Below the pieces are notes generated by a model. It was given only the letters and a program-made list of their open reading frames with translations, was not told where the DNA came from and did no database searches. Both the position numbers and the translations under genes were made by a program. Below, piece by piece: positions 44,486-61,538 of a stretch of 64,000 bases of DNA. This stretch comes from Sulfuricella sp. (GTDB lineage: Bacteria; Pseudomonadota; Gammaproteobacteria; Burkholderiales; Sulfuricellaceae), in NCBI RefSeq assembly GCF_035531155.1, contig NZ_DATKTK010000050.1:14294-78293 (forward strand). Direction: 5' to 3'. Every line of letters begins with the position of its first letter. Within the stretch, counting starts at the first letter, position 1.

Positions 44486-45361
44486 TTATTGGCCACGGCG
44501 CACGACGATGAACACAGAAAAGGTCACGATGGACATGCCGGCGATCTTCTCGATGCCGAGCTTTTCGTCAAACAGCCATGCGGCCTCAAGTGCGGTGACG
44601 GCGGGCACCAGATAAAACAGGCTGGAAACTTTGTGGATCTCGCCGTGCTTGATGAGATAGTTGAGCAGCAGGATGGCGCCGATTGACAGCACGATGGCCA
44701 GCCAGAAGATGGCGAAGATCAGCTGATGGGTGAACTGGATTTCACGGCTTTCGAACAGATAGGTGCCGAGCCCGAAAATCACCACGGTGGAAAGGTACTG
44801 GAAGAACGCGCTGCTGAGGATTTCATTGTGGGCGCAGAATTTCTTCTGGTAGAGCGTCCCCGCCGTGATGCCCAGCAGTGCGATTACGGCGGCCCATGCC
44901 GCGTGCTGGTTGAACGGTGCCGCATGGTTGCTGCCGGCGGCGAAAATCAGGGTTAGCCCGAACAGCCCGAGCACCACGCCCAACCACTGCATGCGAGTGA
45001 CTCGCTCACCCAGCAGCAGTGGAGCGGAGATCGTGGTCAGCAACGGCTGCAACCCGACAATCAACGCGCACAGGCCGGCGGGCATGCCGGCCTTGATCGC
45101 GGTGAACACGCCCCCCAGATAGGCACCGTGGATCAGGCTGCCGCTGACCATCAAATGGAAGCGCTGGCGCCAGTTTGCCGGGGGAGCGGGTTTGAAGTAC
45201 GCGATCAGCGCGACGAGCAGAGCCAGCGTCAGCACGAAGCGCAGGAACAGCAGCGTGTAGGGCTCCGCGTAGGGCAAGCCGTATTTTGCGCCGATGAAGC
45301 CGGTGCTCCATAGCAGGACGAACAGCAGCGGAATGTTGGCGAGAAAGACCCGCTTAAGCAA
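44486..45361 (-). CDS. DMT/EamA family transporter
   Basis: LWSTGFIGAK, VGLQPLLT; about 10 hydrophobic segments. Confidence 0.9.
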   Translation of the reverse strand: MLKRVFLANIPLLFVLLWSTGFIGAKYGLPYAEPYTLLFLRFVLTLALLVALIAYFKPAPPANWRQRFHLMVSGSLIHGAYLGGVFTAIKAGMPAGLCALIVGLQPLLTTISAPLLLGERVTRMQWLGVVLGLFGLTLIFAAGSNHAAPFNQHAAWAAVIALLGITAGTLYQKKFCAHNEILSSAFFQYLSTVVIFGLGTYLFESREIQFTHQLIFAIFWLAIVLSIGAILLLNYLIKHGEIHKVSSLFYLVPAVTALEAAWLFDEKLGIEKIAGMSIVTFSVFIVVRRGQ

Positions 45362-46994
45362 TCTTGCCCAGCTTTCGGTCTTCCCGGATCATGTCGCTGG
45401 CTTTCTCGGCGAACATGACCACCGGCGAACTGGTGTTGCCCGAGGTGATGGCCGGCATGATCGATGCATCCACCACCCGCAGGCCGGCGATACCATGCAC
45501 GCGCAACCGCGCGTCGACCACTGCCATGGGGTCGGCTTTGAGGTCATTGCCCATTTTGCAGGTACCGACCGGGTGGAAAATGGTCGTGCCGATGTCGCCG
45601 GCCGCTTTGGCCAATTCTTCATCGCTTTGGCAGGCGGGGCCAGGCTTGAACTCTTCCGGCGTGTAGCGTTGCAAGGCCGGGGCGGCGACAATGCGGCGCG
45701 TCAGGCGCAGCGAATCTGCCGCCACTTTGCGGTCGCCCTCGGTGGACAGGTAATTGGGCTGAATAAGCGGTGCTTCGCGGCTGTCGGCGCTCTTGATGCG
45801 GATATGGCCGCGGCTTTCCGGATGCAGATTGCACACCGAGGCAGTAAAGGCCGGGAAATCATGCAGCGGATCGCCGAACTTGTCGAGCGACAAGGGTTGC
45901 ACGTGGTATTCCAGATTCGGAGTGACCTGGCTTTCATCCGAGCGGACAAAAGCGCCAAGCTGGCTGGGGGACATGGAGAGCGGGCCGCTCCGGAAGAGCA
46001 GATATTGCAGCCCCATGCCGAGCCGCCCCAGCAGGCTTCCGGCAGTTTCATTCAGGGTGCGGGTGTTTTTCACCTTGAACGCCATGCGCAGTTGCAGGTG
46101 ATCCTGGAGGTTCTCGCCGACCCCGGGCAGTTCGTGAATTACCGGGATGCCGTGTTGTTGCAGCAATGGAGCCGGGCCGATACCGGAACATTGCAGAATC
46201 TGGGGCGAACTCACTGCTCCCGCAGCGAGCAGGGTTTCGAGAGTGGAATCAGCCTGGAAGGCTTGATTGTTCTGCCAGAACTCAACGCCAATGACACGCT
46301 TGCCTTCGAAGCGCAGGCGCCGCACGACCGCGTTGGTGATGACTTTGATGTTGGGGCGACTCAGGGCGGGGCGCAGGAAACCTTTTGAGGCATTCCAGCG
46401 CACGCCGCGTTTCTGATTGACTTCGAAATAGCCACACCCCTCATTATTGCCGCGATTGAAGTCGATGACCTTGGGAATGCCGACCTCGGCGGCTGCATCG
46501 CGAAAGGCGTCGAGGATTTCCCACGACAACCGCTGCTGTTCAACCCGCCATTCGCCGCCGGTGTTGTGCATCTCGTCCGCGCCGCGCGCGTAGTCTTCAG
46601 AGCGTTTGTAGTAGGGCAGGACCTCGTCCCATCCCCAGCCGGGATTGCCCTGCGCCTGCCATTTCTCGAAATCGCGTACCTGGCCGCGCATGTAGATCAT
46701 GCCGTTGATCGATGAGCTGCCGCCGAGTACCCGGCCGCGGGGGTAGCCAATGGCGCGCCCGTTCAAGCCGGGTTCGGGCTCGGTTTTGAAGCACCAGTCG
46801 GTACGAGGGTTGCCGACGCAATACAGATACCCGACCGGAATATGAATCCACAAGTAGTTATCCTTGCCGCCCGCTTCGAGTAACAGGACCTTGATGTCGG
46901 GGTCGCTGGACAGGCGGTTGGCCAGTACGCAGCCGGCTGTTCCGCCGCCGATGATGATGTAGTCGTAAGAGCCGATCGAGGTATTCATGTTCAT
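45354..46994 (-). CDS. GMC-family FAD oxidoreductase (choline dehydrogenase-like; HpdH/DddA-type candidate)
   Basis: GGGTAG, LLEAG, GGSSSINGM, NLQDH, FHPVGTCKMG, VVDAS; WIHIPVGY segment differs from BetA as I recall it. Confidence 0.85.
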   Translation of the reverse strand: MNMNTSIGSYDYIIIGGGTAGCVLANRLSSDPDIKVLLLEAGGKDNYLWIHIPVGYLYCVGNPRTDWCFKTEPEPGLNGRAIGYPRGRVLGGSSSINGMIYMRGQVRDFEKWQAQGNPGWGWDEVLPYYKRSEDYARGADEMHNTGGEWRVEQQRLSWEILDAFRDAAAEVGIPKVIDFNRGNNEGCGYFEVNQKRGVRWNASKGFLRPALSRPNIKVITNAVVRRLRFEGKRVIGVEFWQNNQAFQADSTLETLLAAGAVSSPQILQCSGIGPAPLLQQHGIPVIHELPGVGENLQDHLQLRMAFKVKNTRTLNETAGSLLGRLGMGLQYLLFRSGPLSMSPSQLGAFVRSDESQVTPNLEYHVQPLSLDKFGDPLHDFPAFTASVCNLHPESRGHIRIKSADSREAPLIQPNYLSTEGDRKVAADSLRLTRRIVAAPALQRYTPEEFKPGPACQSDEELAKAAGDIGTTIFHPVGTCKMGNDLKADPMAVVDARLRVHGIAGLRVVDASIMPAITSGNTSSPVVMFAEKASDMIREDRKLGKIA

Positions 46995-47029: not shown

Positions 47030-48253
47030 CTAGGCTAACGCCTCATCCAGCAGTTCGATCCAATGGCGCACCGGCAGGTCGGTGCCGCTTTGCAGGTGGG
47101 CCTGGCAGCCGATGTTGGCGCTGGCGATCTGCGCCGGGCTCCCGCTTTGCAGCGCATCCAGCTTGTTGCGCAGCAACTGCTGCGACAATTCCTTCTGCAG
47201 TATCGAATAGGTTCCCGCCGAGCCGCAGCACAGGTGTTTGTCCGCTACCGGCGTAAGCTCGTAGCCGGCCCTGGTCAGCAATTCCTCAATCACGCCGACG
47301 ATTCTTTGCCCGTGCTGCAAGGTGCAGGGGGAATGGAATGCCACCTTGCCGCGCGGGGCTGGCGAGAGCAGGCAGAACAGCCCGTCCTTTTCCGCAGCGA
47401 GAATCTCGCTCAGGTCGCGGGTGAGGCCGGAAATCCGTGCCGCTTTCCCGGCATAGGCCGGATCGTCGCGCAGCAGGTGGCCGTATTCCTTGACCATCGC
47501 GCCGCAGCCGCTGGCGGTCATCACCACCGCCTCCGTGCCTTGTTCCAGGTAGGGCCACCAGGCGTCGATATTGCGGCGCATGTAGTCCAGCCCTTCCGCA
47601 TGGGCGTTCAGGTGATAGCTGACCGCGCCGCAGCAGCCGGCTTTCTCGGCGCTGAACAGCGTAATGCCGAGCCGATCCAGCACCCGCGCAGCGGCGGCAT
47701 TGGTGTTGGGCGCCAAGCCGGGCTGCACGCAGCCTTCCAGCACCAGCATGGTGCGAGCATGTCGCGCGGTTGGCCAGGGTTTCGCCGGCCGGGCGATGGG
47801 CACTTCCTTTGCCAGCGCGCCTGGCAGCAGCGGGCGAAACAGGCGGCCGAGGGTGAGCAGGGAATTGAAGATGGCCGGACGGGGCAGCACCGCGCGCAGC
47901 AGCCTGCGCTGCACGGCCTGCCACGGGCTGCGGCCGATCTTTTCCTCGGCGATGGCGCGACCGATGTCCACCAGGCGGCCGTAGCGCACGCCGGACGGGC
48001 AGGTGGTTTCGCAGGAGCGGCAGGTGAGGCAGCGATCCAGGTGGAGCAGGGTTTTTTCCGTCACCTCGGCGCCTTCGAGCATCTGCTTAATCAGGTAGAT
48101 GCGTCCGCGCGGGCTGTCCAGCTCGTTGCCGAGCAGCTGGTAGGTGGGGCAGGTGGCGGTGCAAAAACCGCAATGCACACAGGCGCGCAGGATGGCCTCC
48201 GCCTCTTGGCCGGCGGCGGTGTGCTTGATGGAATCGACGAGATTGGTTTGCAT
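47030..48253 (-). CDS. glcF: Glycolate oxidase iron-sulfur subunit
   Basis: CVHCGFCTATC, CLTCRSCETTC, CCGSAG. Confidence 0.95.
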   Translation of the reverse strand: MQTNLVDSIKHTAAGQEAEAILRACVHCGFCTATCPTYQLLGNELDSPRGRIYLIKQMLEGAEVTEKTLLHLDRCLTCRSCETTCPSGVRYGRLVDIGRAIAEEKIGRSPWQAVQRRLLRAVLPRPAIFNSLLTLGRLFRPLLPGALAKEVPIARPAKPWPTARHARTMLVLEGCVQPGLAPNTNAAAARVLDRLGITLFSAEKAGCCGAVSYHLNAHAEGLDYMRRNIDAWWPYLEQGTEAVVMTASGCGAMVKEYGHLLRDDPAYAGKAARISGLTRDLSEILAAEKDGLFCLLSPAPRGKVAFHSPCTLQHGQRIVGVIEELLTRAGYELTPVADKHLCCGSAGTYSILQKELSQQLLRNKLDALQSGSPAQIASANIGCQAHLQSGTDLPVRHWIELLDEALA

Positions 48254-48486: not shown

Positions 48487-49542
48487 TTAAAACGCCTGGT
48501 GCATGCGGCCGGGGTTGAGGATGCCGTGCGGATCGAAGGTCTGCTTCAGCCGCTGGTGCAGTTCCAGCAGAGGTGCGGACAGGGGATGGAACGGCTCGGC
48601 GCTGGGCTCCGGGCTGCGGAACAGGGTCGCCTGGCCGCCGAGCGCAGCCGCCGCCTGGCGGATGGTCGTCGCATCGGCGTCGCTCGCCAGCCAGCGCAAT
48701 GCGCCGCCCCACTCGACCAGTTGCCGTCCCGGCACGGCGATAGCCGGTGCCGTGGATGGCAGCGACAGCCGCCACAGCGTTTCGGCATGGAAAAACGGGT
48801 GGCGCTGCTCGCGCACGCTGTGCCAGAAACTGTCGGCATCTTCCACTATTTCGCCGCCGAGTTTTTGCCGTACCGAGCGCACCGCGGCGGAGGCGCCGGA
48901 AAGGCGCACGGTCAGCGCGCCTTCGTGGTAGCAGGTGGCGGACAGCGACAGCGGCTGCGCCGCCCAGCGATTCATCGCCTCGAGCGCCTCCCGCTCTGCC
49001 ATGCCGAAGCGCAGGGTCAGCTCTTCGGCCGGCAGCGGCAGGATCTTCAGCGACACTTCCAGCAGCAGCCCCAGGGTGCCGAGCGATCCGGCCATCAGTC
49101 GCGACACGTCGTAGCCGGCGACATTCTTCATGACCTGGCCGCCAAAGCGCAGCACCTCGCCCTTGCCGTCGATCATGCGCACGCCCAGCACGTAGTCGCG
49201 CACCGCGCCTGCATAGGCGCGGCGCGGCCCGGACAGCCCGGCGGCGACGCAGCCGCCGAGGGTCGCACCTGGGCCGAAATGGGGCGGCTCGAACGGCAGC
49301 ATTTGCCGGTTGGCCGCCAGCGCCGCCTCGATCTCGGCCAGCGGCGTACCGGCGCGGGCGGTAAGCACGAGTTCGGTGGGTTCGTAGGAGACGATGCCGC
49401 GACAAACGGTCGCGTCCAGCGTTTCGCCATGCGTAGGGCGGCCGTAGAACGACTTGCTGCCCGAGCCGAGGATGCGCAACGGGCGGCGATCGTGGCCGGC
49501 TTCGCGCACGGTCTGGCTGAATTGTTCGATGGTGTCCTGCAT
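48487..49542 (-). CDS. glcE: Glycolate oxidase FAD subunit GlcE
   Basis: YEPTELV, FEPPHF, GGQVMKNVAGYD; ATG 49542 (the longer ORF start lies in a repeat). Confidence 0.95.
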   Translation of the reverse strand: MQDTIEQFSQTVREAGHDRRPLRILGSGSKSFYGRPTHGETLDATVCRGIVSYEPTELVLTARAGTPLAEIEAALAANRQMLPFEPPHFGPGATLGGCVAAGLSGPRRAYAGAVRDYVLGVRMIDGKGEVLRFGGQVMKNVAGYDVSRLMAGSLGTLGLLLEVSLKILPLPAEELTLRFGMAEREALEAMNRWAAQPLSLSATCYHEGALTVRLSGASAAVRSVRQKLGGEIVEDADSFWHSVREQRHPFFHAETLWRLSLPSTAPAIAVPGRQLVEWGGALRWLASDADATTIRQAAAALGGQATLFRSPEPSAEPFHPLSAPLLELHQRLKQTFDPHGILNPGRMHQAF

Positions 49543-49550
49543 CGCTTTAA

Positions 49551-49726
49551 CCTTAAAACCGTAATTAACCACGAATGACACGAATGTTCACGAATGAACA
49601 CAAATAGTTAACAACAAATATCGCCTCACCAAACAGGTGAATCGGGTGAATTTCATTAATCCTTTGATTATTCGTGAACATTAGTGTTTTATTCGTGTAA
49701 ATTCGTGGTTAATCGCTTTTTTTAGG
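49551..49726. repeat. Periodic-arm palindrome, CACGAAT subtype (copy 4)
   Basis: Same arms as copy 3 with a shorter interior. Confidence 0.9.
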
Positions 49727-49742
49727 TTTATCTATAATCTTC

Positions 49743-51197
49743 TCAAAAACGGGGAATGTCGGGGAACGGCACCTGCCCGTGGTGCACGTGCATGCCACCG
49801 AATTCCGAGCAGCGGTGGGCGGTGGGAATTACCTTGCCGGGATTGAGCAGGCCGGACTGGTCGAACGCCAGCTTCACCTCGCGGAACCTCTGCAGCTCCT
49901 CGGGCTTGAACTGCGCGCACATCTGGTTGATTTTTTCGATCCCGACGCCGTGCTCGCCGGTGATGGTGCCGCCCACTTCCACGCATAGTTCCAGGATCTT
50001 GCCGCCGAGTTCCTCGGCGCGATGCCATTCGCCCGGCTGGTTGGCATCGTACAGGATCAGGGGGTGGAGGTTGCCGTCGCCGGCGTGGAATACGTTGGCC
50101 ACGCGCAGGCCGTATTCACGCGACAGCTCGTCGATGCGCCGCAGCACGTGGGTCAGCTCGCGGCGCGGGATGGTGCCGTCCATGCAGTAGTAATCGGGGG
50201 AGATGCGGCCCATGGCGGGGAAGGCGGCCTTGCGCCCGGCCCACAGCCTGAGACGATCCGTCTCATTCTCGGAGGTGCGCAGCGAGGTTGCGCCGCAGCG
50301 GGAGAGAATCGCCTGCATTTTGGCGATTTCCTCGGCGACTTCCTCCGGCGTGCCGTCAGATTCGCACAGTAGAATGGCTTCGGCGTCGAGGGGGTAACCG
50401 GCGTGGACGAAATCCTCTGCCGCCTGGATCGAGAGGCGATCCATCATTTCCAGGCCGGCCGGGATGATGCCGGCGGCGATGATCTCGCCCACCGCGGCGC
50501 CGGCCTCTGCCACCGTGTCGAATGCCGCCATCACCACCTGGGCGAGTTCGGGCCTGGGCAGCAGCTTTACCGTCACCTCAGTGATTACGCCGAGCATGCC
50601 CTCGCTGCCGGTGAACAGCGCCAGCAGATCGTAGCCGGCGGCGTCCATGGCCTCCGAGCCGATCTCCAGCAACTCGCCATCCATGGTGTAGGCGCGCAGC
50701 TTGAGCACGTTGTGGACGGTGAGGCCGTATTTCAGGCAATGCACCCCGCCGGCGTTTTCCGCCACGTTGCCGCCGATGGAGCAGGCGATCTGGCTGGATG
50801 GGTCGGGGGCGTAATAAAGGCCGTGCGGCGCCGCTGCCTCGGAGATGGCCAGGTTGCGCACGCCGGGCTGGACGCGGGCGATGCGGGCGAGGGGGTCGAG
50901 CGACAGAATGCGGTTGAACTTCGACAGGCTGAGCAGCACGCCGTCGGAGAGCGGCAGCGCCCCGCCCGACAGCCCGGTGCCGGCGCCGCGCGCCACCACC
51001 GGCACGTTTTCGCGGCGGCACAGCAGCAGGATTTCCCGCACCTGCTCCTCGGTTTCCGGCAGAACGACCGCCAGCGGCAGCTGGCGGTAGGCCGACAGGC
51101 CGTCGCACTCGAAGGGCTTGAGGTCCTCCTCCTCGAACAGCACTGCGTCGGAGGGGAGAATTCTCTGCAGCTGTTTTACCAGTTCATGCTTTTCCAT
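49743..51197 (-). CDS. glcD: Glycolate oxidase subunit GlcD
   Basis: ARGAGTGLSGG, PDPSSQIAC, HAGDGNLHP, GEHGVG. Confidence 0.96.
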   Translation of the reverse strand: MEKHELVKQLQRILPSDAVLFEEEDLKPFECDGLSAYRQLPLAVVLPETEEQVREILLLCRRENVPVVARGAGTGLSGGALPLSDGVLLSLSKFNRILSLDPLARIARVQPGVRNLAISEAAAPHGLYYAPDPSSQIACSIGGNVAENAGGVHCLKYGLTVHNVLKLRAYTMDGELLEIGSEAMDAAGYDLLALFTGSEGMLGVITEVTVKLLPRPELAQVVMAAFDTVAEAGAAVGEIIAAGIIPAGLEMMDRLSIQAAEDFVHAGYPLDAEAILLCESDGTPEEVAEEIAKMQAILSRCGATSLRTSENETDRLRLWAGRKAAFPAMGRISPDYYCMDGTIPRRELTHVLRRIDELSREYGLRVANVFHAGDGNLHPLILYDANQPGEWHRAEELGGKILELCVEVGGTITGEHGVGIEKINQMCAQFKPEELQRFREVKLAFDQSGLLNPGKVIPTAHRCSEFGGMHVHHGQVPFPDIPRF

Positions 51198-51235: not shown

Positions 51236-52540
51236 TTATTCCTTCGTACCGCGAAGCCTATGATACACCTCGGCCAGCGCCTTTTCGTCGCCGACGTTGC
51301 CGGGGAAAATCACCACCGGAATTTCGGGGAAGGCATGGTCGGCGGGGGTCAGCACCACGCTGCAGCCGGCCAGTATCTGCCCCGCCAGGCGTGTCGTGGG
51401 CAGGGCGAGCCCCTTGCTCAACATGTCGTTGGAGGTAATGCCGCCCTTGCTGATGATGAAGCCGATGGTGGCGGGCAGGCCATGCACCACGTCCATCAGG
51501 AAACCGGACACGTGCTCGCCGAACGCCAGGCGGGCGGCCTGGTCGGGAAACTGGCGTTCCACCCGGCTGGTGAACACCACCGGGGTCAGGCCATTCTGGT
51601 GCGCCTGGGCAACTTTCGCCAGCACTTCTTGTAGCAGGGCCGGGCTCTCTTCTGGCATGCGGCTAACATCCACTTCCACCGCTGCGATGCCTTCCTGCTG
51701 CAGCAATACCTGAAGCTGGTCGGTAGTCTTCTTGACGTGCGAGCCCACCACCACCACGCCTGGCCGGTTATTTTTGACATAGCGGTGCATGTCCTCGGCC
51801 GCAACTGGCTGCGGCGGCAATTTTGCCAGGGCGGTCAGCAGGCTGGCGGCGCTGCGGAACAGGAAACGCTTTCCCTGGCTGGCGGCCTGTTCCAGATCGT
51901 CGGCGAAGCGGTCGAGATCGGCCTGGATTTCGGCATCCACCACGCAGCAGGCATTGCCCGCAAGCGCCATCAGACGGTCGAGCGAGCCGGCGCGGATGTC
52001 GTTGAGGGTGAAGCGCACCACTTGATCGGCCTTGATGCGGCCTCGGGTTTTCTCTTCCACGTAGTCAGGCAGGTAGCTGTGGCGGTAGCCGAACACGGAA
52101 TCGCGGGCGAACTCGGTTTCGTGCACCGGCACTGGCTGGCCGCTTACCTTGAGATAGTGGATGCTGTCCACGGTGAAGCGGCCGCCCTCAAAAAAGGCGG
52201 GCACCAGGAAGTGGGCGTCGAACGGGCCCAGTTCCTCGGCCATGACGTCGGTTTCCACCGGATAGTGGCCGCGCAGGGTGGAGTCGGAGCGGCTGACGAA
52301 CAGCGCCGGCCGGCCGAACCCTTCCATCGCCAGCTTCAGGTTGTGGCACGTCTCGCGCGTCACCTGGCTGGCCTCGGCGGCGCCCATGCCGCGGGTATTG
52401 GTCAGCACGAACATCAGCGGGGAGGCATCGTACAGCCCCTGTTTCAGCGTCTCGACATCCCAGCGGGTGAGCAGCAGACTGCCATGCACCGTTTGCGAGC
52501 CGGTGGGGTCGTCGTCGAGGACTATGATTTTGGGTTGCAT
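51236..52540 (-). CDS. Four-carbon acid sugar kinase family (DUF1537)
   Basis: VLDDDPTG, SRSDSTLRGH, PAFFEGGR, SKGGITS. Confidence 0.88.
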   Translation of the reverse strand: MQPKIIVLDDDPTGSQTVHGSLLLTRWDVETLKQGLYDASPLMFVLTNTRGMGAAEASQVTRETCHNLKLAMEGFGRPALFVSRSDSTLRGHYPVETDVMAEELGPFDAHFLVPAFFEGGRFTVDSIHYLKVSGQPVPVHETEFARDSVFGYRHSYLPDYVEEKTRGRIKADQVVRFTLNDIRAGSLDRLMALAGNACCVVDAEIQADLDRFADDLEQAASQGKRFLFRSAASLLTALAKLPPQPVAAEDMHRYVKNNRPGVVVVGSHVKKTTDQLQVLLQQEGIAAVEVDVSRMPEESPALLQEVLAKVAQAHQNGLTPVVFTSRVERQFPDQAARLAFGEHVSGFLMDVVHGLPATIGFIISKGGITSNDMLSKGLALPTTRLAGQILAGCSVVLTPADHAFPEIPVVIFPGNVGDEKALAEVYHRLRGTKE

Positions 52541-52554
52541 CGAAATTCCTTTTT

Positions 52555-52626
52555 CACCGCAGAGGCGCGGAGGCGCTGAGAAAAACTAAACCCAACCGAT
52601 TGTTCGATCTCTGCGCCTCTGCGGTT
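52555..52626. repeat. Periodic-arm palindrome, CGCAGAG subtype (copy 5)
   Basis: CACCGCAGAGGCGCGGAGGCGC ... CTCTGCGCCTCTGCGGTT. Confidence 0.85.
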
Positions 52627-52632
52627 AAGTCA

Positions 52633-54855
52633 TTAACCCAGCAAAGCCAGCGCCCGTTGCTCCATCGCCTTGGCGTTCATGCCGTTGAGGTCGAACAACT
52701 GGCCTACGCTGGCGGTGGTTTCGCCACGCCGCCAGCAGAATGTTTCGCGGCGTGCCGCGCGGGTTCTCAGCAGTACCGGCTCAAGCATGGCGGACGGACC
52801 GCCGGTGACGGCGATCAGCGCGTCGCCGTGGAACATGGCCTCAAAGTCACCGTCACTCATGAACAGGCCGTCCGGCTGGGACACGGTATTCCACGACACG
52901 TCGGTTGGGCGGTACAGGCGGCGCGGGTTGACCACGGCGACGATGCGCACGCCGATGCCCTGCTTGGTTAGCGCTTCGGCCGCCTCGAATACCGGCAGAA
53001 GCACCATGTCGCCCGTCACTGCGAATACCACCTTGGCCTTGCCGTCAGTGTCGAGCAGGGTGATCGCGCCTTCCTCCACTGCCTTGCGGCTCTGTGCCAG
53101 AGTGGTGCGTACCGGCAGTGGACTCTTGGAGGCGGTGATGACGATACCCTTGTTGTAGGTCTGCAGCGCCCATTCGTAGGCCACCTGGATCATGTTGGCG
53201 TCGGTCGGGAACAGCGGGAACACGTTGCCGTTGCGCATCATGGCGGCGAAGTAGGCTTCGACTTCCGGCCGCTGGTGGGTCCAGCCGTTGCGGCCCTGCT
53301 CCAGTGCGCCGGCGGTGAACAGGCACACCGTGCTCGGCGTTTTGCGACGCAGCTCGGCCATCGCCTGGATCACCGTCTGCCAGATCGGCAGGCCGTTGAT
53401 GACGAAAGATTCGTAAGAGCACCACAGGCTGCGCCCGCCGAATAGCGCCACTGCGGCAGCGAGCCCGGCGCAGGCATCCTCGTTGAGCGGCTCGTAAACC
53501 TGGCCGTTGGGGCCCTGGAAATACAGCTCATCCACCGTCGGATGGCGGATCGTGAGTGCCTTGTTGATGTTGGCCATGGCCGAGGCTTCGTTGCCATCGG
53601 CATTGGTGACGATGAAACGCGGGTCGCGCTTGCCGACCTCGGCCACCACTTGGCCGAAGGCGGTAGTCGGCACCTTGGCCTCGCCATCTACGTCGTATTC
53701 GGTCATCAGCGGCAGGCCGTCGAGGCTGGCCAACTCCAGCTCGAATTCGGTCACCACGGTCTTAACGGCGGGTCCGCCGCCGGCATGGCGGAAATTCTCG
53801 CGCACCAATTCCCAGGCGGCGGTCGACAGGGCGCGGCGTTGCAGGCCGCCCTTGACGTCGTCGCTTTCCAGGGTGTGGTAGGCGTACATGTTATGCGACT
53901 TGGCACCGGTGGCATGCACCCCGGTGCCCTTGAGTTGTTTCAGGATCAGCACCGACAGCCCGCCGTTGAGGCCGTTTTGCGCGGCTGCATGGCTGGCTTT
54001 TAGCACTGCGCCGGCAAAGGCCACGCGCCGCTGCCACGAGAACAGCGAGCTGTCGACGTAGGCGCCATCCTGATTCTGGTCGTCGAATTCCTTGGCGTCC
54101 ACCAGGTACACGTGCTTGAAACCGTGGGCCTTCCAGTAGGCCGTCATGCGGGCATTGTCCCAAGTCGAGACCATGCTGTGGTGTTCCTGGGAATAGCCGT
54201 TCCAGACCAGGATCGGTAGGAAGTTGGTGGCCTTGGGGTAGGCGGTGTTGAAATGCACCATGGCGCTCATGATGTAGGGCTCGCCCAGGCCGCCGTCGCC
54301 GATGGTCACCGGGAACAGCTTGCCGGGATGGAGCAGGGCGCCGGCCATGGCGAAATGCTGGCCCTGGCCCAAGGGGCCGGCGGGGGAGAGTAGGCCGGGA
54401 ATAGCGCCGGACAGATGTCCCAGCAGGCCGTGGGTTTCGCGGAAGCGCTCGCGCATCTGCTGCACCGTGGTTATGCCCATTTCTTCCAGCGAGGTGTCGA
54501 GGAACATGGCGCTGTAGAAGCCCGGCGCATGGTGGCCGACTTCGGTCACGATATTGGTGTGGCCCAGCATCACCATGGAGGCATAGGCTTCCGCGCTGCT
54601 GGCGAAACCGCCGGGGTGGCCGGAAGATTTGGCGCCGGTCACCTGGAGGGTGAGATAGCGCAGGGCATCCGCAACCAGCAGGGTCTGATAGGCCGCCTTT
54701 TCATCGTTGGCGTCGGCAACGCCGTGAACCTTTTCCGACAGGCAGGGGGCAGCGCCGTAACGATCGAAGTCCGGCATGGATTCCGCGAAATATTGAATTC
54801 CTTGGCAAAACGCCGGCGTAGCCTGCGGTGCTATCAGCTTTTTTTCCGCGCTCAT
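52633..54855 (-). CDS. Phosphoketolase-family ThDP-dependent enzyme (short 740-aa type)
   Basis: GDG...WNG ThDP motif, SGHPGG, EVGHH, SYESF, NGWTHQ. Confidence 0.82.
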   Translation of the reverse strand: MSAEKKLIAPQATPAFCQGIQYFAESMPDFDRYGAAPCLSEKVHGVADANDEKAAYQTLLVADALRYLTLQVTGAKSSGHPGGFASSAEAYASMVMLGHTNIVTEVGHHAPGFYSAMFLDTSLEEMGITTVQQMRERFRETHGLLGHLSGAIPGLLSPAGPLGQGQHFAMAGALLHPGKLFPVTIGDGGLGEPYIMSAMVHFNTAYPKATNFLPILVWNGYSQEHHSMVSTWDNARMTAYWKAHGFKHVYLVDAKEFDDQNQDGAYVDSSLFSWQRRVAFAGAVLKASHAAAQNGLNGGLSVLILKQLKGTGVHATGAKSHNMYAYHTLESDDVKGGLQRRALSTAAWELVRENFRHAGGGPAVKTVVTEFELELASLDGLPLMTEYDVDGEAKVPTTAFGQVVAEVGKRDPRFIVTNADGNEASAMANINKALTIRHPTVDELYFQGPNGQVYEPLNEDACAGLAAAVALFGGRSLWCSYESFVINGLPIWQTVIQAMAELRRKTPSTVCLFTAGALEQGRNGWTHQRPEVEAYFAAMMRNGNVFPLFPTDANMIQVAYEWALQTYNKGIVITASKSPLPVRTTLAQSRKAVEEGAITLLDTDGKAKVVFAVTGDMVLLPVFEAAEALTKQGIGVRIVAVVNPRRLYRPTDVSWNTVSQPDGLFMSDGDFEAMFHGDALIAVTGGPSAMLEPVLLRTRAARRETFCWRRGETTASVGQLFDLNGMNAKAMEQRALALLG

Positions 54856-55023: not shown

Positions 55024-56616
55024 CTATTCCATGACGGCGTAACAGTGATTGGTAAGGAATTCCACGATAGCCTCGCTGGCGATCAGTTGATCGAAAACCT
55101 TCGCCCCTTGCTGATAATCCCCGGAAATGAAGCGTTTTTCGCTCACGCCCGCGATGATTCCGGCAACAGTTGCCGGAATCATCGCGCGGACCATCTCGAC
55201 TGTCACCTTGCGGCCGTCGTCCAGCACTCCGCGGGCGCTGTGTATCCACTGCCATACCTGGGAGCGGGAAATTTCGGCGGTGGCGGCGTCCTCCATCAGG
55301 TTGTGTATCGGCACGCAGCCAGTGCCAGCCAGCCAAGCGCCAAGGTAGGCTATCGCTACTTCGATGTTGGCGCGCAGCCCCGCCTCGGTGATCGGGCCTT
55401 CAGGTTCGAATTTCAGCAGGTCGGCGGCGCTAGCCTGGACGTCTTCGCGCTTCTTGTGCAACTGATTTGGGGTGGGCATCAGCCGGTCGAAAACCTCCAT
55501 CGCCAGCGGCACCAGGCCGGGATGGGCTACCCAAGTGCCGTCGTGGCCGTCGCTTGCTTCTCGCTCCTTGTCGGCGCGTACCTTGGCGAGTGCCATGGCA
55601 TTCGCCTCGGGGTCGGACTTGATCGGGATCTGTGCCGCCATTCCGCCCATGGCATGGGCGTTGCGGCGATGGCAGGTCTTGATCGATAGCAGCGAATAGG
55701 CGCGCATGAAGGGCGAGGTCATGGTCACCAGGCCGCGGTCGGCCAGGATGAAGCTCGGGTTGCGGCTGAACTTCTTGATGCAGCTGAAGATGTAATCCCA
55801 GCGTCCGCAGTTGAGGCCGGCCGAGTGCTCGCGCAGCTCGTAGAGGAATTCGTCCATCTCGAAGGCGGCGGGGAGGGTCTCGATCAGCGCCGTCGCCTTG
55901 ACGGTGCCGCGCGGGATGCCGAGGCGCTCCTGGGCGTAGACGAAGACGTCGTTCCACAACCGGGCTTCGAGGTGGCTTTCCATCTTGGGCAGGTAGAAAT
56001 AGGGCGCGGTGCCCCGGGACAGCAGGGTTTTTGCGTTGTGGAAGAAGTACAGGCCGAAGTCGAAGAGGCTGCCGGACACCGGCTTTCCGTCCACGGTCAC
56101 GTGCTTCTCCAGCATGTGCCAGCCGCGCGGGCGAACGAACAGCACCGCGGTTTTTTCATTCAACTGGTAGGTCTTGCCGTCCGGGTTGACGTGGCTGATG
56201 GTACGGGCGACCGCGTCGCGCAGGTTGATCTGGGCCTCGACCACGTTGGGCCAGGTCGGGGTCATGGAATCTTCCAGGTCCGCCATGTATACCTTTGCTC
56301 CGGCGTTGAGTCCGTTGATCAGCATCTTGCGCTCCGCCGGGCCGGTGATCTCGACGCGCCGGTCCTGCAGTTCGGCAGGCACCGGGGCGACGCTCCAGTC
56401 GCCGCTGCGCACGTCGGCGGTTTCGGGCAGGAAGTCTGGCAGCTTGCCGCTGTCCAGTTCGGCCTGGCGGGCCACCCGCCGCTCCAGCAGGGATAGACGC
56501 ACGGGCTCGAACTTGCGCGCCAGTTCGGCGATGAACGTCAGTGCCTCGGGAGTGAGGATGCTGGATTGCTCCGGGGTGACCGGGGCGGAGATTGCTATGC
56601 CTGCGGGATGAGTCAT
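55024..56616 (-). CDS. aceB: Malate synthase A
   Basis: RRVEITGP, VRPRGWH, LNCGRWDYIFS, DGHDGTWVAHP, LMEDAATAEISR. Confidence 0.96.
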   Translation of the reverse strand: MTHPAGIAISAPVTPEQSSILTPEALTFIAELARKFEPVRLSLLERRVARQAELDSGKLPDFLPETADVRSGDWSVAPVPAELQDRRVEITGPAERKMLINGLNAGAKVYMADLEDSMTPTWPNVVEAQINLRDAVARTISHVNPDGKTYQLNEKTAVLFVRPRGWHMLEKHVTVDGKPVSGSLFDFGLYFFHNAKTLLSRGTAPYFYLPKMESHLEARLWNDVFVYAQERLGIPRGTVKATALIETLPAAFEMDEFLYELREHSAGLNCGRWDYIFSCIKKFSRNPSFILADRGLVTMTSPFMRAYSLLSIKTCHRRNAHAMGGMAAQIPIKSDPEANAMALAKVRADKEREASDGHDGTWVAHPGLVPLAMEVFDRLMPTPNQLHKKREDVQASAADLLKFEPEGPITEAGLRANIEVAIAYLGAWLAGTGCVPIHNLMEDAATAEISRSQVWQWIHSARGVLDDGRKVTVEMVRAMIPATVAGIIAGVSEKRFISGDYQQGAKVFDQLIASEAIVEFLTNHCYAVME

Positions 56617-56639: not shown

Positions 56640-57587
56640 TCAGGCGACGCGGTTCTGCGCTTCGCCGCGCATGAACGCCTCGATGTTGTCGATCAACTGG
56701 TCGGCCAGGGTCTGCATCGCTTCCCGGCCCGACCAGGCGATGTGCGGCGTGAGGATGAAGTTGGGCAGGTCGAGGTCGAGCAGGGGGTTGCCTTCTCTGG
56801 GCGGCTCCTTGCCCAGCACGTCGAATCCGGCGCCGCCGATTCTGCCCGAATGCAGGACATCGAGCAGCGCCGCTTCGTCCACCAGACCGCCGCGGGCGGT
56901 GTTGATCAGCAGGGCGTGGGGTTTCATCCGGGCGAATTCAGCCGCACCGATCAGGTGGCGGGTTTGCTCGCTGAGGGGCAAGTGCAAACTGATCACGTCG
57001 CTTTCCTGCAGCACCGTGTCGAACGCGGTGTAGCCCGGGCGCACCTCGGCGGCACCCTTGTGCTCGGCGATCAGCACCTTCATGCCGAATGCCAGCGCGA
57101 TCTGTTCCACCGCCTGGCCGATGGCGCCGTGGCCGATCAGCCCCAGGGTGCTGCCGTGCAGGTCGCGCACCGGATGGGTGAACAGGCAGAACTGGTCGGC
57201 CCGCTGCCATTCGCCGTTGCGCAAGTCGGCGCGGAACGCCAGCAGGTTGCGGCGCAGCGCCAGCATCAGCATGAACACGTGCTCCGGCACGGTGTGCACC
57301 GAGTAGTTGCGGATGTTGGATACCACGATGCCGCGTTCGCGGCAGCAGGCGATATCCACGTTGTCGGTGCCGGTGGCGGCGGCGGCCACCATCTTCAGCT
57401 TGGGCAATTGCTCCAGCGTTTCCCGGCGTAGCGGCACCTTGTTGGTGATGGCGACAGTGGCCTCCATCAGCCGCGCCACGATCTGGTCGGCCGGCGTGGC
57501 AGGATACTCCTCCCACTGGTGATGGAAGGACGGGTGGCGGATGTCGGCGATGATGCTGTCGGAATCGAGAAAGACGATTTTTTCCAT
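56640..57587 (-). CDS. D-2-hydroxyacid dehydrogenase (glycerate dehydrogenase/hydroxypyruvate reductase-like)
   Basis: ATGTDNVD, GHGAIG, INTARGGLVDE, LTPHIAW. Confidence 0.85.
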   Translation of the reverse strand: MEKIVFLDSDSIIADIRHPSFHHQWEEYPATPADQIVARLMEATVAITNKVPLRRETLEQLPKLKMVAAAATGTDNVDIACCRERGIVVSNIRNYSVHTVPEHVFMLMLALRRNLLAFRADLRNGEWQRADQFCLFTHPVRDLHGSTLGLIGHGAIGQAVEQIALAFGMKVLIAEHKGAAEVRPGYTAFDTVLQESDVISLHLPLSEQTRHLIGAAEFARMKPHALLINTARGGLVDEAALLDVLHSGRIGGAGFDVLGKEPPREGNPLLDLDLPNFILTPHIAWSGREAMQTLADQLIDNIEAFMRGEAQNRVA

Positions 57588-57756: not shown

Positions 57757-58644
57757 CTAATCGCCGCCCATGCCGGACATCCGTTCCAGCACCTTGACCA
57801 CTGCAGAGGAATCCAGGTCAGCGTCGCCGCTGCCCATCAGGGCGTTGAGGTGCTGGGTGACCAGGGCGGCGGCAGGCAGCACCAGGCCGAGCTGGTGGGC
57901 GGTTTCCATGACGATGCGCATGTCTTTCTGGTGCAGGCCAACCTTGAAGCCGGGCCTGAAATCGTGGTCCAGCATGCGCTTGCCGTGCACTTCCAGTATC
58001 TTGCTGCCGGCGAAACCGCCGAGCAGGGCCTCGCGCACCTTGGCCGGGTCGGCACCGTTCTTGCGGGCGAAAGTCAGCGCTTCCGCCACCGCTTCAATAG
58101 TCACCGCCACCACGATCTGGTTGCATGCCTTGGCCACTTGGCCGGCGCCGTTGCCGCCGACGTGGACGATATTCTCGCCCATGCATTCGAACAGCGGTCT
58201 GACGCGCTCGAACACCTCCGGCTTGCCGCCCGCCATGATCGAGAGGGTGGCATTGATCGCCCCGGTTTCGCCGCCGGAAACCGGCGCGTCCAGCATCTCG
58301 ATGCCTTTCGCACTAAGTCGCTCGGCGAAAGCCTTGGTGGCGGTGGGGGAGATAGTGCTCATGTCGACCACTACCAAACCTGGCCGGGCGCTGTGAATGA
58401 TGCCCTGTTCGCCGAACACCACCGTTTCCACATCCGGGGTGTCGGATACGATGGTGAAGATCACGTCCGCGTGGGCTGCTACTTCCCCGGGCGTGGCGCA
58501 GGCGGTTGCACCTGCAGCCGTCAGCTGCTGCAGGGCTTCCGGGCGGCGCGCGTAGGCCCACAGCTTGTGCCCGCCCTTCATCAGGTTGAGGGCCATGGGG
58601 CGGCCCATGATGCCGGGGCCGATAAATCCGACATTGAATGACAT
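57757..58644 (-). CDS. glxR: HIBADH-family reductase, 2-hydroxy-3-oxopropionate (tartronate semialdehyde) reductase-like
   Basis: GPGIMG, DAPVSGG, KACNQ, FRPGF...HQKD. Confidence 0.75.
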   Translation of the reverse strand: MSFNVGFIGPGIMGRPMALNLMKGGHKLWAYARRPEALQQLTAAGATACATPGEVAAHADVIFTIVSDTPDVETVVFGEQGIIHSARPGLVVVDMSTISPTATKAFAERLSAKGIEMLDAPVSGGETGAINATLSIMAGGKPEVFERVRPLFECMGENIVHVGGNGAGQVAKACNQIVVAVTIEAVAEALTFARKNGADPAKVREALLGGFAGSKILEVHGKRMLDHDFRPGFKVGLHQKDMRIVMETAHQLGLVLPAAALVTQHLNALMGSGDADLDSSAVVKVLERMSGMGGD

Positions 58645-58874: not shown

Positions 58875-59828
58875 TTAATGCATCAGCCACACCGTTACCG
58901 GCAGCGTCAGCCAGAACAGTACCGTGGTCCAGCCGATCAGCAGGGCGGCGGCCTCGGTGTCGAGATGAAAGCGGTCGGTCAGGATCAGCGCCGACATGAT
59001 GGTCGGCATGCCCGCTTCGACGATGGCGGCTTTCTGCGCCTCGCCCACCGGAGCGAACAGCAGCGACGCGGTGAGCGCCACCACCAGCGGCATCAGGGCG
59101 AGCTTGATGGCGGCCACGCCGAGAATGACTCCCTTGGGTTTCAGTTGCCGCCAGGGGATGGACAGCCCCAGCACAAACATCATGACCGGGATGGTGGCCT
59201 GGCCGATCATCTTGGCCGCATGGACCAGCGGCTCGAAAGCCAGTCCGCTCATCTGCAAGCCGGCTCCCGCAAAAAACGCCCAGATCGGCGGGATGCCGAC
59301 CAGTTGGCGCCATACCGGCGGATGCAGGCCGGCGGATTCAGGCGGGCCGAGGTGGGTGCAGACCCATATGCCCAGGCTCCAGAACAGCGGCATGGTCATC
59401 AGCATGTCGTTGAAGGCCGCATAGCGAGGTGCTTCGCTGCCATAGAGGAAGACCAGCACCGGCACGCCGATGTAGAAGGTGTTGCCGAACATGCCGCCCA
59501 CCAGCAAGGCGGCGCGCGTCCCGTTGTGCAGGTCGCGCCCGAACCGGGTGCGGTAGAGCAGCAGGTAGAGCACCGCGCCGGAGGTCAGGCCGCCGATACC
59601 GACCAGAAGGGGCACCGACAGCAGTCCGGGGGTGATCGGCGTGGCAACCGCAATGGAGAACAGAATGGCCGGGAAGAACAGGTTGAGCACCAGCCGGTTG
59701 AGCTGGATGCGCAAGGTCTTGCTGGAGATTTCCCGGTAATGGTTCGGCCAGACTGCGCCCACGCCGACCAGAATGGCGGCCGGCAGCATCACCTCGATCA
59801 TGAGTTTGACCAGATGGTTCAGGTCCAT
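58875..59828 (-). CDS. AEC (auxin efflux carrier) family transporter
   Basis: FFPAILF, FGNTFYIGVP, KLALMP, EAGMP. Confidence 0.85.
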   Translation of the reverse strand: MDLNHLVKLMIEVMLPAAILVGVGAVWPNHYREISSKTLRIQLNRLVLNLFFPAILFSIAVATPITPGLLSVPLLVGIGGLTSGAVLYLLLYRTRFGRDLHNGTRAALLVGGMFGNTFYIGVPVLVFLYGSEAPRYAAFNDMLMTMPLFWSLGIWVCTHLGPPESAGLHPPVWRQLVGIPPIWAFFAGAGLQMSGLAFEPLVHAAKMIGQATIPVMMFVLGLSIPWRQLKPKGVILGVAAIKLALMPLVVALTASLLFAPVGEAQKAAIVEAGMPTIMSALILTDRFHLDTEAAALLIGWTTVLFWLTLPVTVWLMH

Positions 59829-60035: not shown

Positions 60036-61538
60036 TTAGCCGAGCGTCGGCATCACCAGCGTGGAGGCGCTGCGCTCAGACACTTCCGGCCAGCGGCTGG
60101 TGATGGCCTTGGTGCGGGTGTAGAAGTACACGCCTTCCATGCCGTGCATGTGCAGGTCGCCGAACAGCGAGGACTTCCAGCCGCCGAAGGAGAAGAAGGC
60201 CATCGGTACCGGGATCGGCACGTTGATGCCGACCATGCCGACTTCGATCTCGTTCTGGAAGCGCCGCGCCGCCGCGCCGGAACTGGTGAAGATGGCGGTG
60301 CCGTTGGCGTAGGGGTTGCTGTTGACCAGGTTGATCGCCTCGTCGAAGCTGGCGGCGCGCAGCACGATCAGCACCGGGCCGAAGATTTCCTCGCGGTAGA
60401 TGGTCATCTCGGTGGAAACATGGTCGAACAGGGTCGGCCCGACGAAAAAGCCGTTCTCGTGGCCGGGCACCTTGATGCCGCGCCCATCCGTTAACAACTT
60501 TGCGCCCTGCGCCACGCCGCTGTCGATGTGGCCGACGATCTTGTCGCGATGCTGGGCTGAGATCACCGGGCCCATCTCGACGCCTTTCCTGTCGCCCGGG
60601 CCGACCACCAGCTTCTCGGCTCTTTCCTTCAGCTTGGCCACCAGCGCATCGGCCACGTCGCCCACCGCGACCACGGTGGAGATCGCCATGCAGCGCTCGC
60701 CGGCGGAGCCGTAGGCGGCGCCCATGATGGCGTCGGCGGTGAAGTCCAGCTCGGCGTCGGGCAGTACGATGGCATGGTTCTTGGCGCCGCCCAGGGCCTG
60801 CACGCGCTTGCCGTGGCGGGCGGCGGTCTCGTAGATGTGTTTGGCCACCGGCGTCGAACCGACGAAGGACACGGCACGCACGTCGGGGTGGATGAGCAGG
60901 GTGTCCACCGCTTCCTTGTCGCCCGGCACGACGTTGAAAACGCCGTCGGGCAGGCCCGCTTCCTTGAACAGCTCGGCCATACGCAGGCTGCACGAAGGCA
61001 CCTTTTCGGAAGGCTTGAGGACGAAGGTGTTGCCGCAGGCGATGGCGATGGGGAACATCCACATCGGCACCATCGCCGGGAAGTTGAACGGGGTGATGCC
61101 GGCGCATACCCCCACCGGCTGCAGCATGGAGTGGCAATCGACGCCGCGGCCGACGTTTTCGGCATGCTCGCCTTTGAGCAGATGCGGCGCGCCGACGGCG
61201 AATTCCACCACTTCGATGCCGCGCTGCACCGAGCCGGCGGCGTCTTCCAGGGTCTTGCCATGCTCTTCGCTGGCCAGTTGCGCCAGCTCGGCGCGGTGGG
61301 TTTCGAGCAGGTCACGGAACTTGTTCAGGATGCGGCTGCGGCGCAGGGGGGTGGTATCGCGCCAGGCTGGGAATGCAGCCTTGGCGGCGGCAACTGCGCT
61401 TTCCACATCCTCGCGGCTGGCCAGCGGCACCTGACGGATCGCTTCGCCGGTGGCCGGGTTGGTCACGTCTGCCAGGCGGTTGCTGCGGCTCTCGGTGCGC
61501 TGGCCGTTGATCCATAGGGTTAAGGTAGGCTTCGACAT
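60036..61538 (-). CDS. mmsA: CoA-acylating (methyl)malonate-semialdehyde dehydrogenase
   Basis: ITPFNFPAM, SFVGSTP, GGAKNH, GERCMA, EEIFGP, FGGWK.SLFGDLH. Confidence 0.93.
   Translation of the reverse strand: MSKPTLTLWINGQRTESRSNRLADVTNPATGEAIRQVPLASREDVESAVAAAKAAFPAWRDTTPLRRSRILNKFRDLLETHRAELAQLASEEHGKTLEDAAGSVQRGIEVVEFAVGAPHLLKGEHAENVGRGVDCHSMLQPVGVCAGITPFNFPAMVPMWMFPIAIACGNTFVLKPSEKVPSCSLRMAELFKEAGLPDGVFNVVPGDKEAVDTLLIHPDVRAVSFVGSTPVAKHIYETAARHGKRVQALGGAKNHAIVLPDAELDFTADAIMGAAYGSAGERCMAISTVVAVGDVADALVAKLKERAEKLVVGPGDRKGVEMGPVISAQHRDKIVGHIDSGVAQGAKLLTDGRGIKVPGHENGFFVGPTLFDHVSTEMTIYREEIFGPVLIVLRAASFDEAINLVNSNPYANGTAIFTSSGAAARRFQNEIEVGMVGINVPIPVPMAFFSFGGWKSSLFGDLHMHGMEGVYFYTRTKAITSRWPEVSERSASTLVMPTLG

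Follow-up and report, generated by a model that had tools for sequence, protein, structure and literature searches.

We analysed a 64,000-nucleotide stretch of DNA (the window) from Sulfuricella sp. (assembly GCF_035531155.1, contig NZ_DATKTK010000050.1) that encodes, side by side, a phosphoketolase-like thiamine diphosphate (ThDP) enzyme, hereafter PKL, and a DUF1537 kinase. The two proteins form an obligate pair, which in proteobacteria is co-operonic with the organism's only glycolate oxidase and which probably marks an undescribed step in the handling of RuBisCO-derived glycolate. Our preferred reading, tentative and given a probability of roughly 0.3, is that PKL and the kinase would act as one dedicated glycolate/glyoxylate module in RuBisCO-bearing bacteria, by ketol transfer and then phosphorylation. 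The broader proposition, that the pair catalyses undescribed reactions on glyoxylate or a derived C3/C4 keto acid as a fourth photorespiratory route, has better prospects, still short of an even chance. All of the chemistry is inferred from sequence and gene context. New in this analysis are the co-occurrence counts in cyanobacteria, the contingency with RuBisCO, the optional nature of malate synthase, tartronate semialdehyde reductase (TSR) and glyoxylate carboligase (Gcl), the co-resident canonical phosphoketolase (Xfp), and the contexts in which the oxidase is swapped.

Co-occurrence of PKL and the kinase

An earlier note on this DNA had described the two open reading frames (ORFs) as a co-directional pair between malate synthase (aceB) and glcDEF, and the ORFs and their strands were as described (Table 1). 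Gene neighbourhoods were read in the 80 best species-level loci (numbered with the prefix L). The order PKL-DUF1537-glcD-glcE-glcF was present in about 30 of them, proteobacterial and at 64-90% identity, and in five distant proteobacterial genomes; where it was absent, the contig usually ended. It spans Burkholderiales, other Gammaproteobacteria and one further class of the phylum. Because the same order recurs in about 30 independent proteobacterial loci, the adjacency of PKL, kinase and glcDEF is not a matter of chance. GlcE and GlcF of the window exceeded the NCBIfam equivalog cut-offs, with GlcD marginally under, and this glcDEF is the sole complete set in the genome.

Among 251 cyanobacterial genomes, 90 carried both genes, 1 carried PKL only, 7 carried the kinase only and 153 carried neither (Fisher p about 1e-58, with kinship among genomes ignored). 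Four of the seven kinases that occurred alone were at 48-54% identity, while the cyanobacterial PKL and kinase were in general 64-70% and 61-71% identical, respectively, to the window proteins. The association of the ThDP enzyme with this DUF1537 clade, which the earlier note had put forward for checking, was thus very strongly positive in both adjacency and co-occurrence. In cyanobacteria the two genes are scattered, being adjacent or close in a few early-branching or filamentous ones (L056, L073, L095), and their neighbours there (P450, Uma2-like and CrtI-like for PKL; minCDE for the kinase) gave no metabolic signal. A cytochrome P450 gene stood divergent from PKL in 24 cyanobacterial loci (e.g., L085:8396-9778) and the kinase adjoined minCDE in some Nostocales; both look like lineage synteny.

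PKL was found in 28 of the 301 genomes of the window's order. RuBisCO was present in 26 of these 28 Burkholderiales and in 99 of the 273 non-carriers, kinship not accounted for, and in all five of the other proteobacterial PKL carriers; the suggested RuBisCO link of the pair therefore held. In the genome studied here (3.46 Mb, 100% complete), RuBisCO large-subunit genes number three to four and lie on contigs other than that of the window. Within the genus PKL is an accessory trait, occurring in two of six sampled genomes though RuBisCO occurred in all six. In a quick maximum-likelihood tree, the proteobacterial PKLs formed one clade (SH-aLRT 99) beside early-branching cyanobacterial sequences. 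Rooting on phosphoketolases is unreliable, as the outgroup branch measures about 10 substitutions per site, and no direction of transfer is claimed.

The PKL family and the kinase subfamily

Judged by its sequence, PKL falls outside both the true phosphoketolases and the transketolases and reads as a mosaic of the two. The best NCBIfam phosphoketolase model reached 89.2 bits where the cut-off is 962, the others gave 68-86 bits against cut-offs of 777-1518, and the transketolase models gave 43.6 bits against 575. Identity was 17-20% to solved phosphoketolases and 24% to the genome's own canonical Xfp, which lies on contig C66 (38968-41295) and is 42% identical to a standard Xfp representative. 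Only acetate kinase fragments were seen beside that canonical gene (C66:37506-37753), with an intact ackA on contig C3. A canonical phosphoketolase-like gene and acetate kinase were also seen just upstream of PKL-kinase-glcDEF in one genome from the further proteobacterial class (L017:426-2090, G165:C19:2518-3660).

The nearest public protein to PKL was from a Sulfuricella metagenome-assembled genome (97% identity). A 50%-clustered search of 1.84 billion representatives returned a single further full-length member at 56% identity, and the next full-length matches were ordinary phosphoketolases at 26-30%; this drop indicates a compact, isolated family. The AlphaFold model of PKL was of moderate confidence (pLDDT 75.6), and Foldseek matched it best to phosphoketolases (TM 0.69) and then to transketolases (about 0.6).

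PKL was aligned with six phosphoketolases and two transketolases; the Escherichia coli transketolase sequence that served as the ruler was 68% identical to the genome's own transketolase. All of the phosphoketolase-type motifs quoted in the earlier note were present, namely GHP (in SGHPGG), GHH (in VGHHAPG), SYESF and NGWTHQ. The PP domain bears the transketolase motifs SGHPGG and GPLGQG, and the spacing of the ThDP motif and the Pyr domain (SYESF, NGWTHQ, ASKSP) are phosphoketolase-like. The Xfp signatures EGGELGY, GDGE and GHWGT are replaced by PAGPLGQG, GDGG and SGHPGG, a family-specific insert of roughly 45 residues follows the PP domain, and the protein ends about 50 residues before phosphoketolases do, the C-terminal helical extension being gone.

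At the active site, PKL H80, H108, H147, H321 and E459 align with B. breve His64, His97, His142, His320 and Glu479, while Y481, N523, H527 and K577 align with Tyr501, Asn549, His553 and Lys605; these nine residues were invariant across 21 PKL family members. Gln520 is in addition the equivalent of Gln546. We take the catalytic roles of the phosphoketolase residues to be those given by Suzuki et al. 2010. Two family-specific arginines, R522 (phosphoketolase His548) and R529, flank the Asn523/His527 dyad. The aspartate that reads the C4-OH in transketolase (D469) is Asn523 in PKL, the distal sugar-phosphate ligands are missing (R358 to T398, H461 to G516), and two further transketolase positions are altered (R520 to K577, F434 to Y481). 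The roles of Asp469, Arg358, His461 and Arg520 in the E. coli enzyme are likewise assumed by us.

The PKL family is the cyanobacterial 'Pkt2/PKET2' (sll0529 of Synechocystis, alr1850 of Nostoc 7120), and the cyanobacterial homologs suggested in the earlier note, sll0529 and alr1850 among them, are real, at 67-70% identity. Public annotation reads 'phosphoketolase'. Moriyama et al. 2015 reportedly found no Xfp activity for Alr1850. The supplementary alignment of PMC7744508 shows the family block YQTLLAADALRYLTLQ..SGHPGGFAS for both sll0529 and alr1850; that paper regards Pkt2 as an unverified second phosphoketolase, calls for experimental proof, and states that only two of three Anabaena phosphoketolase candidates are biochemically characterised. 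In the literature, we found no paper in which a kinase of the DUF1537 or four-carbon acid-sugar type is coupled to a phosphoketolase-like enzyme or to glycolate, and none that mentions the kinase partner of Pkt2 or the proteobacterial glycolate-oxidase operon.

The partner protein is a DUF1537 acid-sugar kinase of a subfamily outside the characterised groups OtnK, DtnK, DenK and OiaK. Its sole NCBIfam match was the D-threonate kinase model, at 75 bits against a cut-off of 450, and a sequence search of the PDB returned a single weak match, 4XFR (E=0.001), and gave no ligand information.

Oxidases and glyoxylate outlets around the pair

A fast-evolving sub-branch of PKL (56-64% identity) sits on a long branch nested in the proteobacterial autotroph clade. 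There the pair keeps a 2-hydroxyacid oxidase as its neighbour while the oxidase family varies: a fused GlcD/GlcF-type protein (L120), a GlcD-like protein (L123), a GlcE-like protein (L121), or an FMN/cytochrome-b5 oxidase together with a 2-Hacid_dh protein (L126). Glycolate, being achiral, is a substrate that D-specific and L-specific oxidase families have in common. We read the swapping as support for glycolate/glyoxylate as the linked metabolite, with the reservation that the sub-branch may have shifted in function. Its extra neighbours include HisD-like dehydrogenases, an enolase-superfamily dehydratase, malic enzyme and a class II aldolase homolog (L118). The histidinol dehydrogenase paralogs stood directly upstream of PKL (L120:8397-9686, L123:3951-5342) and scored over the hisD domain cut-off, far under the equivalog cut-off; one of these contexts adjoins the dehydratase and malic enzyme. 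The aldolase homolog (L118:12524-13375, class II F_bP_aldolase, 283 aa, under all equivalog cut-offs) directly follows PKL and has an IclR regulator beside it, with no DUF1537 kinase within 10 kb. An IclR regulator also stood divergent from PKL in 24 proteobacterial loci and was most like the glyoxylate-responsive BhcR/IclR/AllR.

Other enzymes that would consume glyoxylate were rare among 18 PKL-bearing genomes: malate synthase was found in two, TSR over its cut-off in two, and Gcl in none, and 16 had neither malate synthase nor TSR. The position between malate synthase and glcDEF, to which the earlier note had given weight, is thus true here and local to this lineage. Two of its models, a classical phosphoketolase supplying acetyl units to malate synthase and, as worded, a cleavage of 3-oxo-tetronate (or its 4-phosphate) to the two precursors of malate synthase, cannot by these counts be the general function. 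Feeding of malate synthase as a general role of the pair was rejected on the same count. PKL as the only glyoxylate sink was also rejected, with the glycine cleavage system found in all six proteobacterial carriers tested. All 11 carriers tested had acetate kinase, and four of the 11 had Pta; since a canonical Xfp coexists, neither discriminates for acetyl-phosphate. HIBADH matches at 1e-40 were missing in 7 of 12 cyanobacteria.

In the genome studied here, no Gcl exceeded the cut-off (TIGR01504, best 338 bits against 711) and no class I glycerate kinase (GK-I) was found genome-wide; a single MOFRL glycerate kinase is encoded outside the window's contig.

Proposed reaction sequence

GlcDEF would oxidise glycolate to glyoxylate. 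PKL would form dihydroxyethyl-ThDP from a ketol donor, either a Calvin-cycle ketose phosphate or hydroxypyruvate, and would join the dihydroxyethyl unit to glyoxylate, the carboxylate of which would occupy the phosphate (anion) site of phosphoketolases. The predicted product is 3-oxo-tetronate (HOCH2-CO-CHOH-COO-), proposed because the substrate of an acid-sugar kinase must have both a carboxylate and a CH2OH, and dihydroxyethyl plus glyoxylate gives exactly that. The kinase would then phosphorylate the terminal CH2OH, like the characterised 3-oxo-tetronate kinases of its family, and the beta-keto acid phosphate would break down to CO2 and dihydroxyacetone phosphate, either without an enzyme or with the help of a class II aldolase. 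One glyoxylate carbon would return to the triose-phosphate pool at the cost of one ATP and without ammonia release. TSR, the 2-hydroxyacid dehydrogenase and malate synthase A of the window may be lineage-specific extra outlets for glyoxylate.

Several observations are in favour of this sequence. If glyoxylate is the substrate, the predicted product of PKL matches the best-known DUF1537 substrate. Asn523 and Arg522/Arg529 sit at the position of the C4 substituent of a donor ketose, a site that a carboxylate would occupy; the histidines for the CH2OH and C3-OH groups are kept and the distal phosphate ligands lost, which would fit a short substrate with a carboxylate at C4. The scarcity of other dedicated outlets among the 18 carriers also speaks for it, as do the obligate pairing, the order kept with glcDEF, the IclR regulator, the swapped oxidases and the RuBisCO link. 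The aldolase homolog of L118, finally, belongs to the family of the 2-oxo-tetronate-4-phosphate decarboxylase in PMC12540250 and is counted in its support.

Other observations weigh on the opposite side. PKL keeps the equivalents of Tyr501, Asn549, Gln546 and Lys605, which points to acyl-phosphate formation, and no decarboxylase is conserved in the PKL-kinase operon. Of the two carbons of glycolate the route would save only one, and the glycine cleavage system provides another glyoxylate sink in the proteobacterial carriers. The cyanobacterial pair lacks linkage to glycolate oxidase, except for a GlcF-like neighbour in L051. Eisenhut et al. 2008 reportedly found that a Synechocystis mutant blocked in the three known glyoxylate routes needs high CO2 despite sll0529, and any such shunt would therefore carry little flux in that organism. 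Induction of sll0529 by low CO2 was slight (1.10-fold; PMC7744508).

The first model of the earlier note, in which a C2 unit is added to glyoxylate and the kinase traps the product, corresponds to this sequence. The link of the pair to glycolate/glyoxylate stood; sequence does not separate this model from the cleavage model.

Alternative explanations

The opposite order, in which the kinase acts first and PKL then performs a phosphoketolase-type cleavage to acetyl-phosphate, is about as likely as ketol transfer followed by phosphorylation; it takes in the cleavage model of the earlier note and adds a C3 variant. The kinase would phosphorylate the terminal CH2OH adjoining the keto group in 3-oxo-tetronate, or in hydroxypyruvate from D-glycerate oxidation. 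PKL would add ThDP to the keto carbon, free glyoxylate (or CO2) and expel phosphate in place of water, and the expelled phosphate would attack acetyl-ThDP to give acetyl-phosphate. The phosphoketolase-specific Tyr481, Asn523, Gln520 and Lys577, the catalytic histidines and Glu459 are all kept. Arg522/Arg529 would suit an acid substrate and the lost distal phosphate ligands a short one. The obligate kinase would be explained without any further enzyme, and the reported lack of Xfp activity in Alr1850 is compatible with this order. Further support may come from acetate kinase in every carrier tested, from TSR and a hydroxypyruvate-reductase-type enzyme (C3 hydroxy acids), which adjoin the pair here as well as in L019 and L126, and from the adjacent malate synthase here, which acetyl-phosphate and glyoxylate would supply. 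However, the co-resident canonical Xfp accounts equally well for acetate kinase, autotrophs have no evident source of 3-oxo-tetronate, neither OtnI nor LtnD turned up among the window ORFs, and the tetronate variant would add glyoxylate in genomes without malate synthase and Gcl. The co-operonic sole glycolate oxidase (about 30 loci) and the swapping of D- and L-oxidases would be left without a simple reason. Kinase-first cleavage agrees best with the active site and least with the glycolate-oxidase context.

An unlikely alternative is a non-orthologous glycerate pathway. PKL would be an analog of Gcl, converting two glyoxylate to tartronate semialdehyde and CO2, and the kinase would take hydroxypyruvate to 3-phosphohydroxypyruvate, and from there 3-phosphoglycerate would be formed by a 2-Hacid_dh/SerA-type enzyme, or it would take D-glycerate after TSR. 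Canonical Gcl is missing from all 18 carriers, yet a bona fide TSR lies two genes upstream here; L126 has the order reductase, glycolate dehydrogenase, PKL, kinase; and a 2-Hacid_dh gene is adjacent here and in L019. This pathway would have the best carbon yield (75%), and DXS is a precedent for decarboxylative carboligation on the transketolase fold. On the other hand, the histidines for the donor CH2OH are conserved though a hydroxymethyl-ThDP intermediate would not need them, TSR and HIBADH homologs are missing from many carriers (see above), and, if glycerate is the kinase substrate, existing kinases (MOFRL here) make a dedicated one unnecessary. The restriction to RuBisCO carriers would be unexplained, and Synechocystis is reported to have Gcl too.

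A four-carbon acid-sugar route, or metabolite repair, is improbable. The oxidase would convert a tetronate (e.g., erythronate from erythrose-4-phosphate damage) to 2-oxo-tetronate, the kinase would make the 4-phosphate, and PKL, as a ThDP 2-oxoacid decarboxylase, would yield glyceraldehyde-3-phosphate and CO2. The oxidase, kinase and ThDP enzyme would then follow a linear order of steps; HisD-like dehydrogenases, which take an alcohol to an acid, occur with the pair in the divergent branch together with an enolase-superfamily dehydratase and a class II aldolase homolog; and DUF1537 includes 2-oxo-tetronate kinases (PMC12540250). However, GlcE and GlcF score as equivalogs of the E. coli glycolate oxidase and belong to the genome's only set, the divergent branch is long and nested in the autotroph clade, where its context may reflect a derived function, and the phosphoketolase-type phosphate-site residues would be left without a role.

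Least probable is an ordinary second phosphoketolase (forming acetyl-phosphate from xylulose-5-phosphate or fructose-6-phosphate) with the kinase and glcDEF as mere neighbours; the public annotation, the kept catalytic residues and acetate kinase agree with it, whereas the best score of 89 bits against cut-offs of 777-1518, the replaced EGGELGY and GDGE, the missing 50 or so C-terminal residues, the near-perfect co-occurrence with the kinase, the canonical Xfp elsewhere in this genome (and another beside the module in L017) and the reported inactivity of Alr1850 all oppose it. The same tenfold sub-threshold scores, co-resident Xfp and obligate kinase disfavour the classical phosphoketolase of the earlier note. 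Databases and PMC7744508 assume this function, although by that paper's own account the characterised Anabaena candidates number only two of three.

Gene cluster in the window

A co-directional minus-strand run spans 44.5-63 kb of the window (Table 1). In transcription order, it comprises an MFS transporter, a CoA-acylating (methyl)malonate-semialdehyde dehydrogenase (MMSDH), an AEC permease, TSR, a 2-hydroxyacid dehydrogenase and malate synthase A, and continues with PKL, the DUF1537 kinase, glcD, glcE, glcF, a GMC oxidoreductase and an EamA transporter.

Table 1. Features of the glycolate oxidase cluster and the scores that identify them
Feature	Position in window	Strand	Evidence
GMC oxidoreductase (choline-dehydrogenase-like), terminal in run	45354..46994	-	GMC_oxred_N/C; NF002550 593.5 bits (cut-off 605)
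glcF, Fe-S subunit	47030..48253	-	NF008434 682.6 bits > 333
glcE	48487..49581	-	NF008439 550 bits > 284
glcD, glycolate oxidase FAD subunit	49743..51197	-	NF008408 859 bits (cut-off 897); TIGR00387 558 bits
DUF1537 kinase, 434 aa	51236..52540	-	SBD_N PF07005 195.6 bits and NBD_C PF17042 127.3 bits, both full length
REP-like palindrome in the 92-bp PKL-kinase spacer	52553..52628		20-nt arms, 90% complementary
PKL, 740-aa ThDP enzyme	52633..54855	-	Pfam XFP 44 bits, Transket_pyr 37, XFP_N 34, all weak
Malate synthase A	55024..56616	-	TIGR01344 799.8 > 594.5
D-isomer-specific 2-hydroxyacid dehydrogenase (glyoxylate/hydroxypyruvate reductase or phosphoglycerate dehydrogenase-like)	56640..57587	-	2-Hacid_dh_C 193.6 bits; PRK06487 384.8 (cut-off 448)
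TSR (GlxR-type HIBADH)	57757..58644	-	TIGR01505 377.6 > 340.75
Mem_trans/AEC-family permease, between MMSDH and TSR	58875..59828	-	PF03547 66.6 bits
MMSDH	60036..61550	-	TIGR01722 738 > 448.5

The usual partners of DUF1537 kinases (PdxA2, class II aldolase, RuBisCO-like protein), Gcl and glycerate kinase were not found among the window ORFs, in agreement with the earlier note. Its suggestion that the HIBADH-family gene might be of the LtnD type failed: the protein scored as TSR, and LtnD was ruled out by the L-threonate dehydrogenase model (198.5 < 350). TSR recurs near PKL in L019, L036 and G319, in the first two again with the AEC permease beside it. The 2-hydroxyacid dehydrogenase also adjoins PKL in L019, and an unrelated 2-Hacid_dh protein does so in L126. 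An MMSDH homolog (78-91% identity) adjoins the module in L014 (16342-17847) and L019 (2-2471); MMSDH was seen by the module in three different genomes, in some loci with the AEC permease. The GMC oxidoreductase was not conserved at other loci.

Similar REP-like palindromes with repeated short purine-rich units were seen in cluster intergenic gaps at 44300-44416 and 48311-48386, the three elements being those that passed the inverted-repeat settings used. Scans of the window for promoters and terminators gave counts no higher than shuffled sequence; upstream of PKL there was just a weak -35/-10 match, and no minus-strand terminator was found within the run between TSR (58644) and the GMC gene. 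The remaining window is housekeeping: LolCDE-like, ComEC, SpoT, Cus-type efflux, ThrRS, PheST, SurE, an RpoS-like sigma factor and CheB.

Significance

Cyanobacterial photorespiratory metabolism is regarded as well mapped, with three routes. If the broader proposition is true, the pair, present in about a third of the sampled cyanobacterial genomes and joined to glycolate oxidase in sulfur-oxidising autotrophs, would add a missing photorespiratory reaction and would be a widespread fourth route for 2-phosphoglycolate/glycolate in cyanobacteria and chemolithoautotrophs. PKL would be a third functional branch of the transketolase/phosphoketolase superfamily, and both this superfamily and the DUF1537 kinases would gain a new type of chemistry. 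The 'phosphoketolase' annotation used in Synechocystis metabolic models would be corrected. A short ATP-only module from glyoxylate to triose, or from a keto acid to acetyl-phosphate, would serve engineered photorespiratory bypasses.

Comparison with known systems

Xfp (EC 4.1.2.9/4.1.2.22; Bifidobacterium 3AHC/3AI7, Synechococcus 8IO8) resembles PKL in its three-domain ThDP fold (TM 0.69), in the GDG...N spacing and in the ten active-site residues from His64 to Lys605 (His64, His97, His142, His320, Glu479, Tyr501, Gln546, Asn549, His553, Lys605) that have equivalents in PKL. It differs in its length of 790-825 aa with a C-terminal extension, compared to about 740 aa without one, and in carrying His548 and an Asp after HQ where PKL has Arg522 and Arg529; PKL, in addition, is paired with a DUF1537 kinase and coexists with a true Xfp. 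Transketolase (TktA/CbbT) shares with PKL the motifs SGHPG, GH, GPLGQG and GDG, the catalytic histidines and Glu, and a fold at TM about 0.6, whereas the acceptor/phosphate ligands of PKL are altered and the insert of about 45 residues follows its PP domain. The cyanobacterial Pkt2/PKET2 (sll0529, alr1850) is the same protein family as the window PKL.

The known DUF1537 pathways for L-threonate/D-erythronate/D-threonate and for D-apionate, reportedly described by Zhang et al. 2016 and Carter et al. 2018, use the same two-domain kinase family. The characterised kinases transfer phosphate to the terminal CH2OH of C4/C5 (keto) acid sugars, the type of substrate proposed here. Their partners are a dehydrogenase, an isomerase, a class II aldolase-family decarboxylase, PdxA2 or a RuBisCO-like protein, none of which is in this window, and are not known to include a ThDP enzyme. 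Those pathways serve sugar-acid catabolism, whereas the kinase here stands in a context of autotrophy and glycolate oxidase. A three-step variant of the DUF1537 pathway is cited in PMC12540250.

The E. coli clusters glcDEFGBA and gcl-hyi-glxR-glxK likewise couple glycolate oxidase to glyoxylate-consuming enzymes, as the window does with TSR and malate synthase in addition to the pair. A malate cycle in Cupriavidus necator is said to have been described by Claassens et al. 2020. In contrast to E. coli, the cluster here is without gcl, hyi, glxK and glcG and has a malate synthase of type A rather than G, and PKL and the kinase hold the conserved core position beside glcD.

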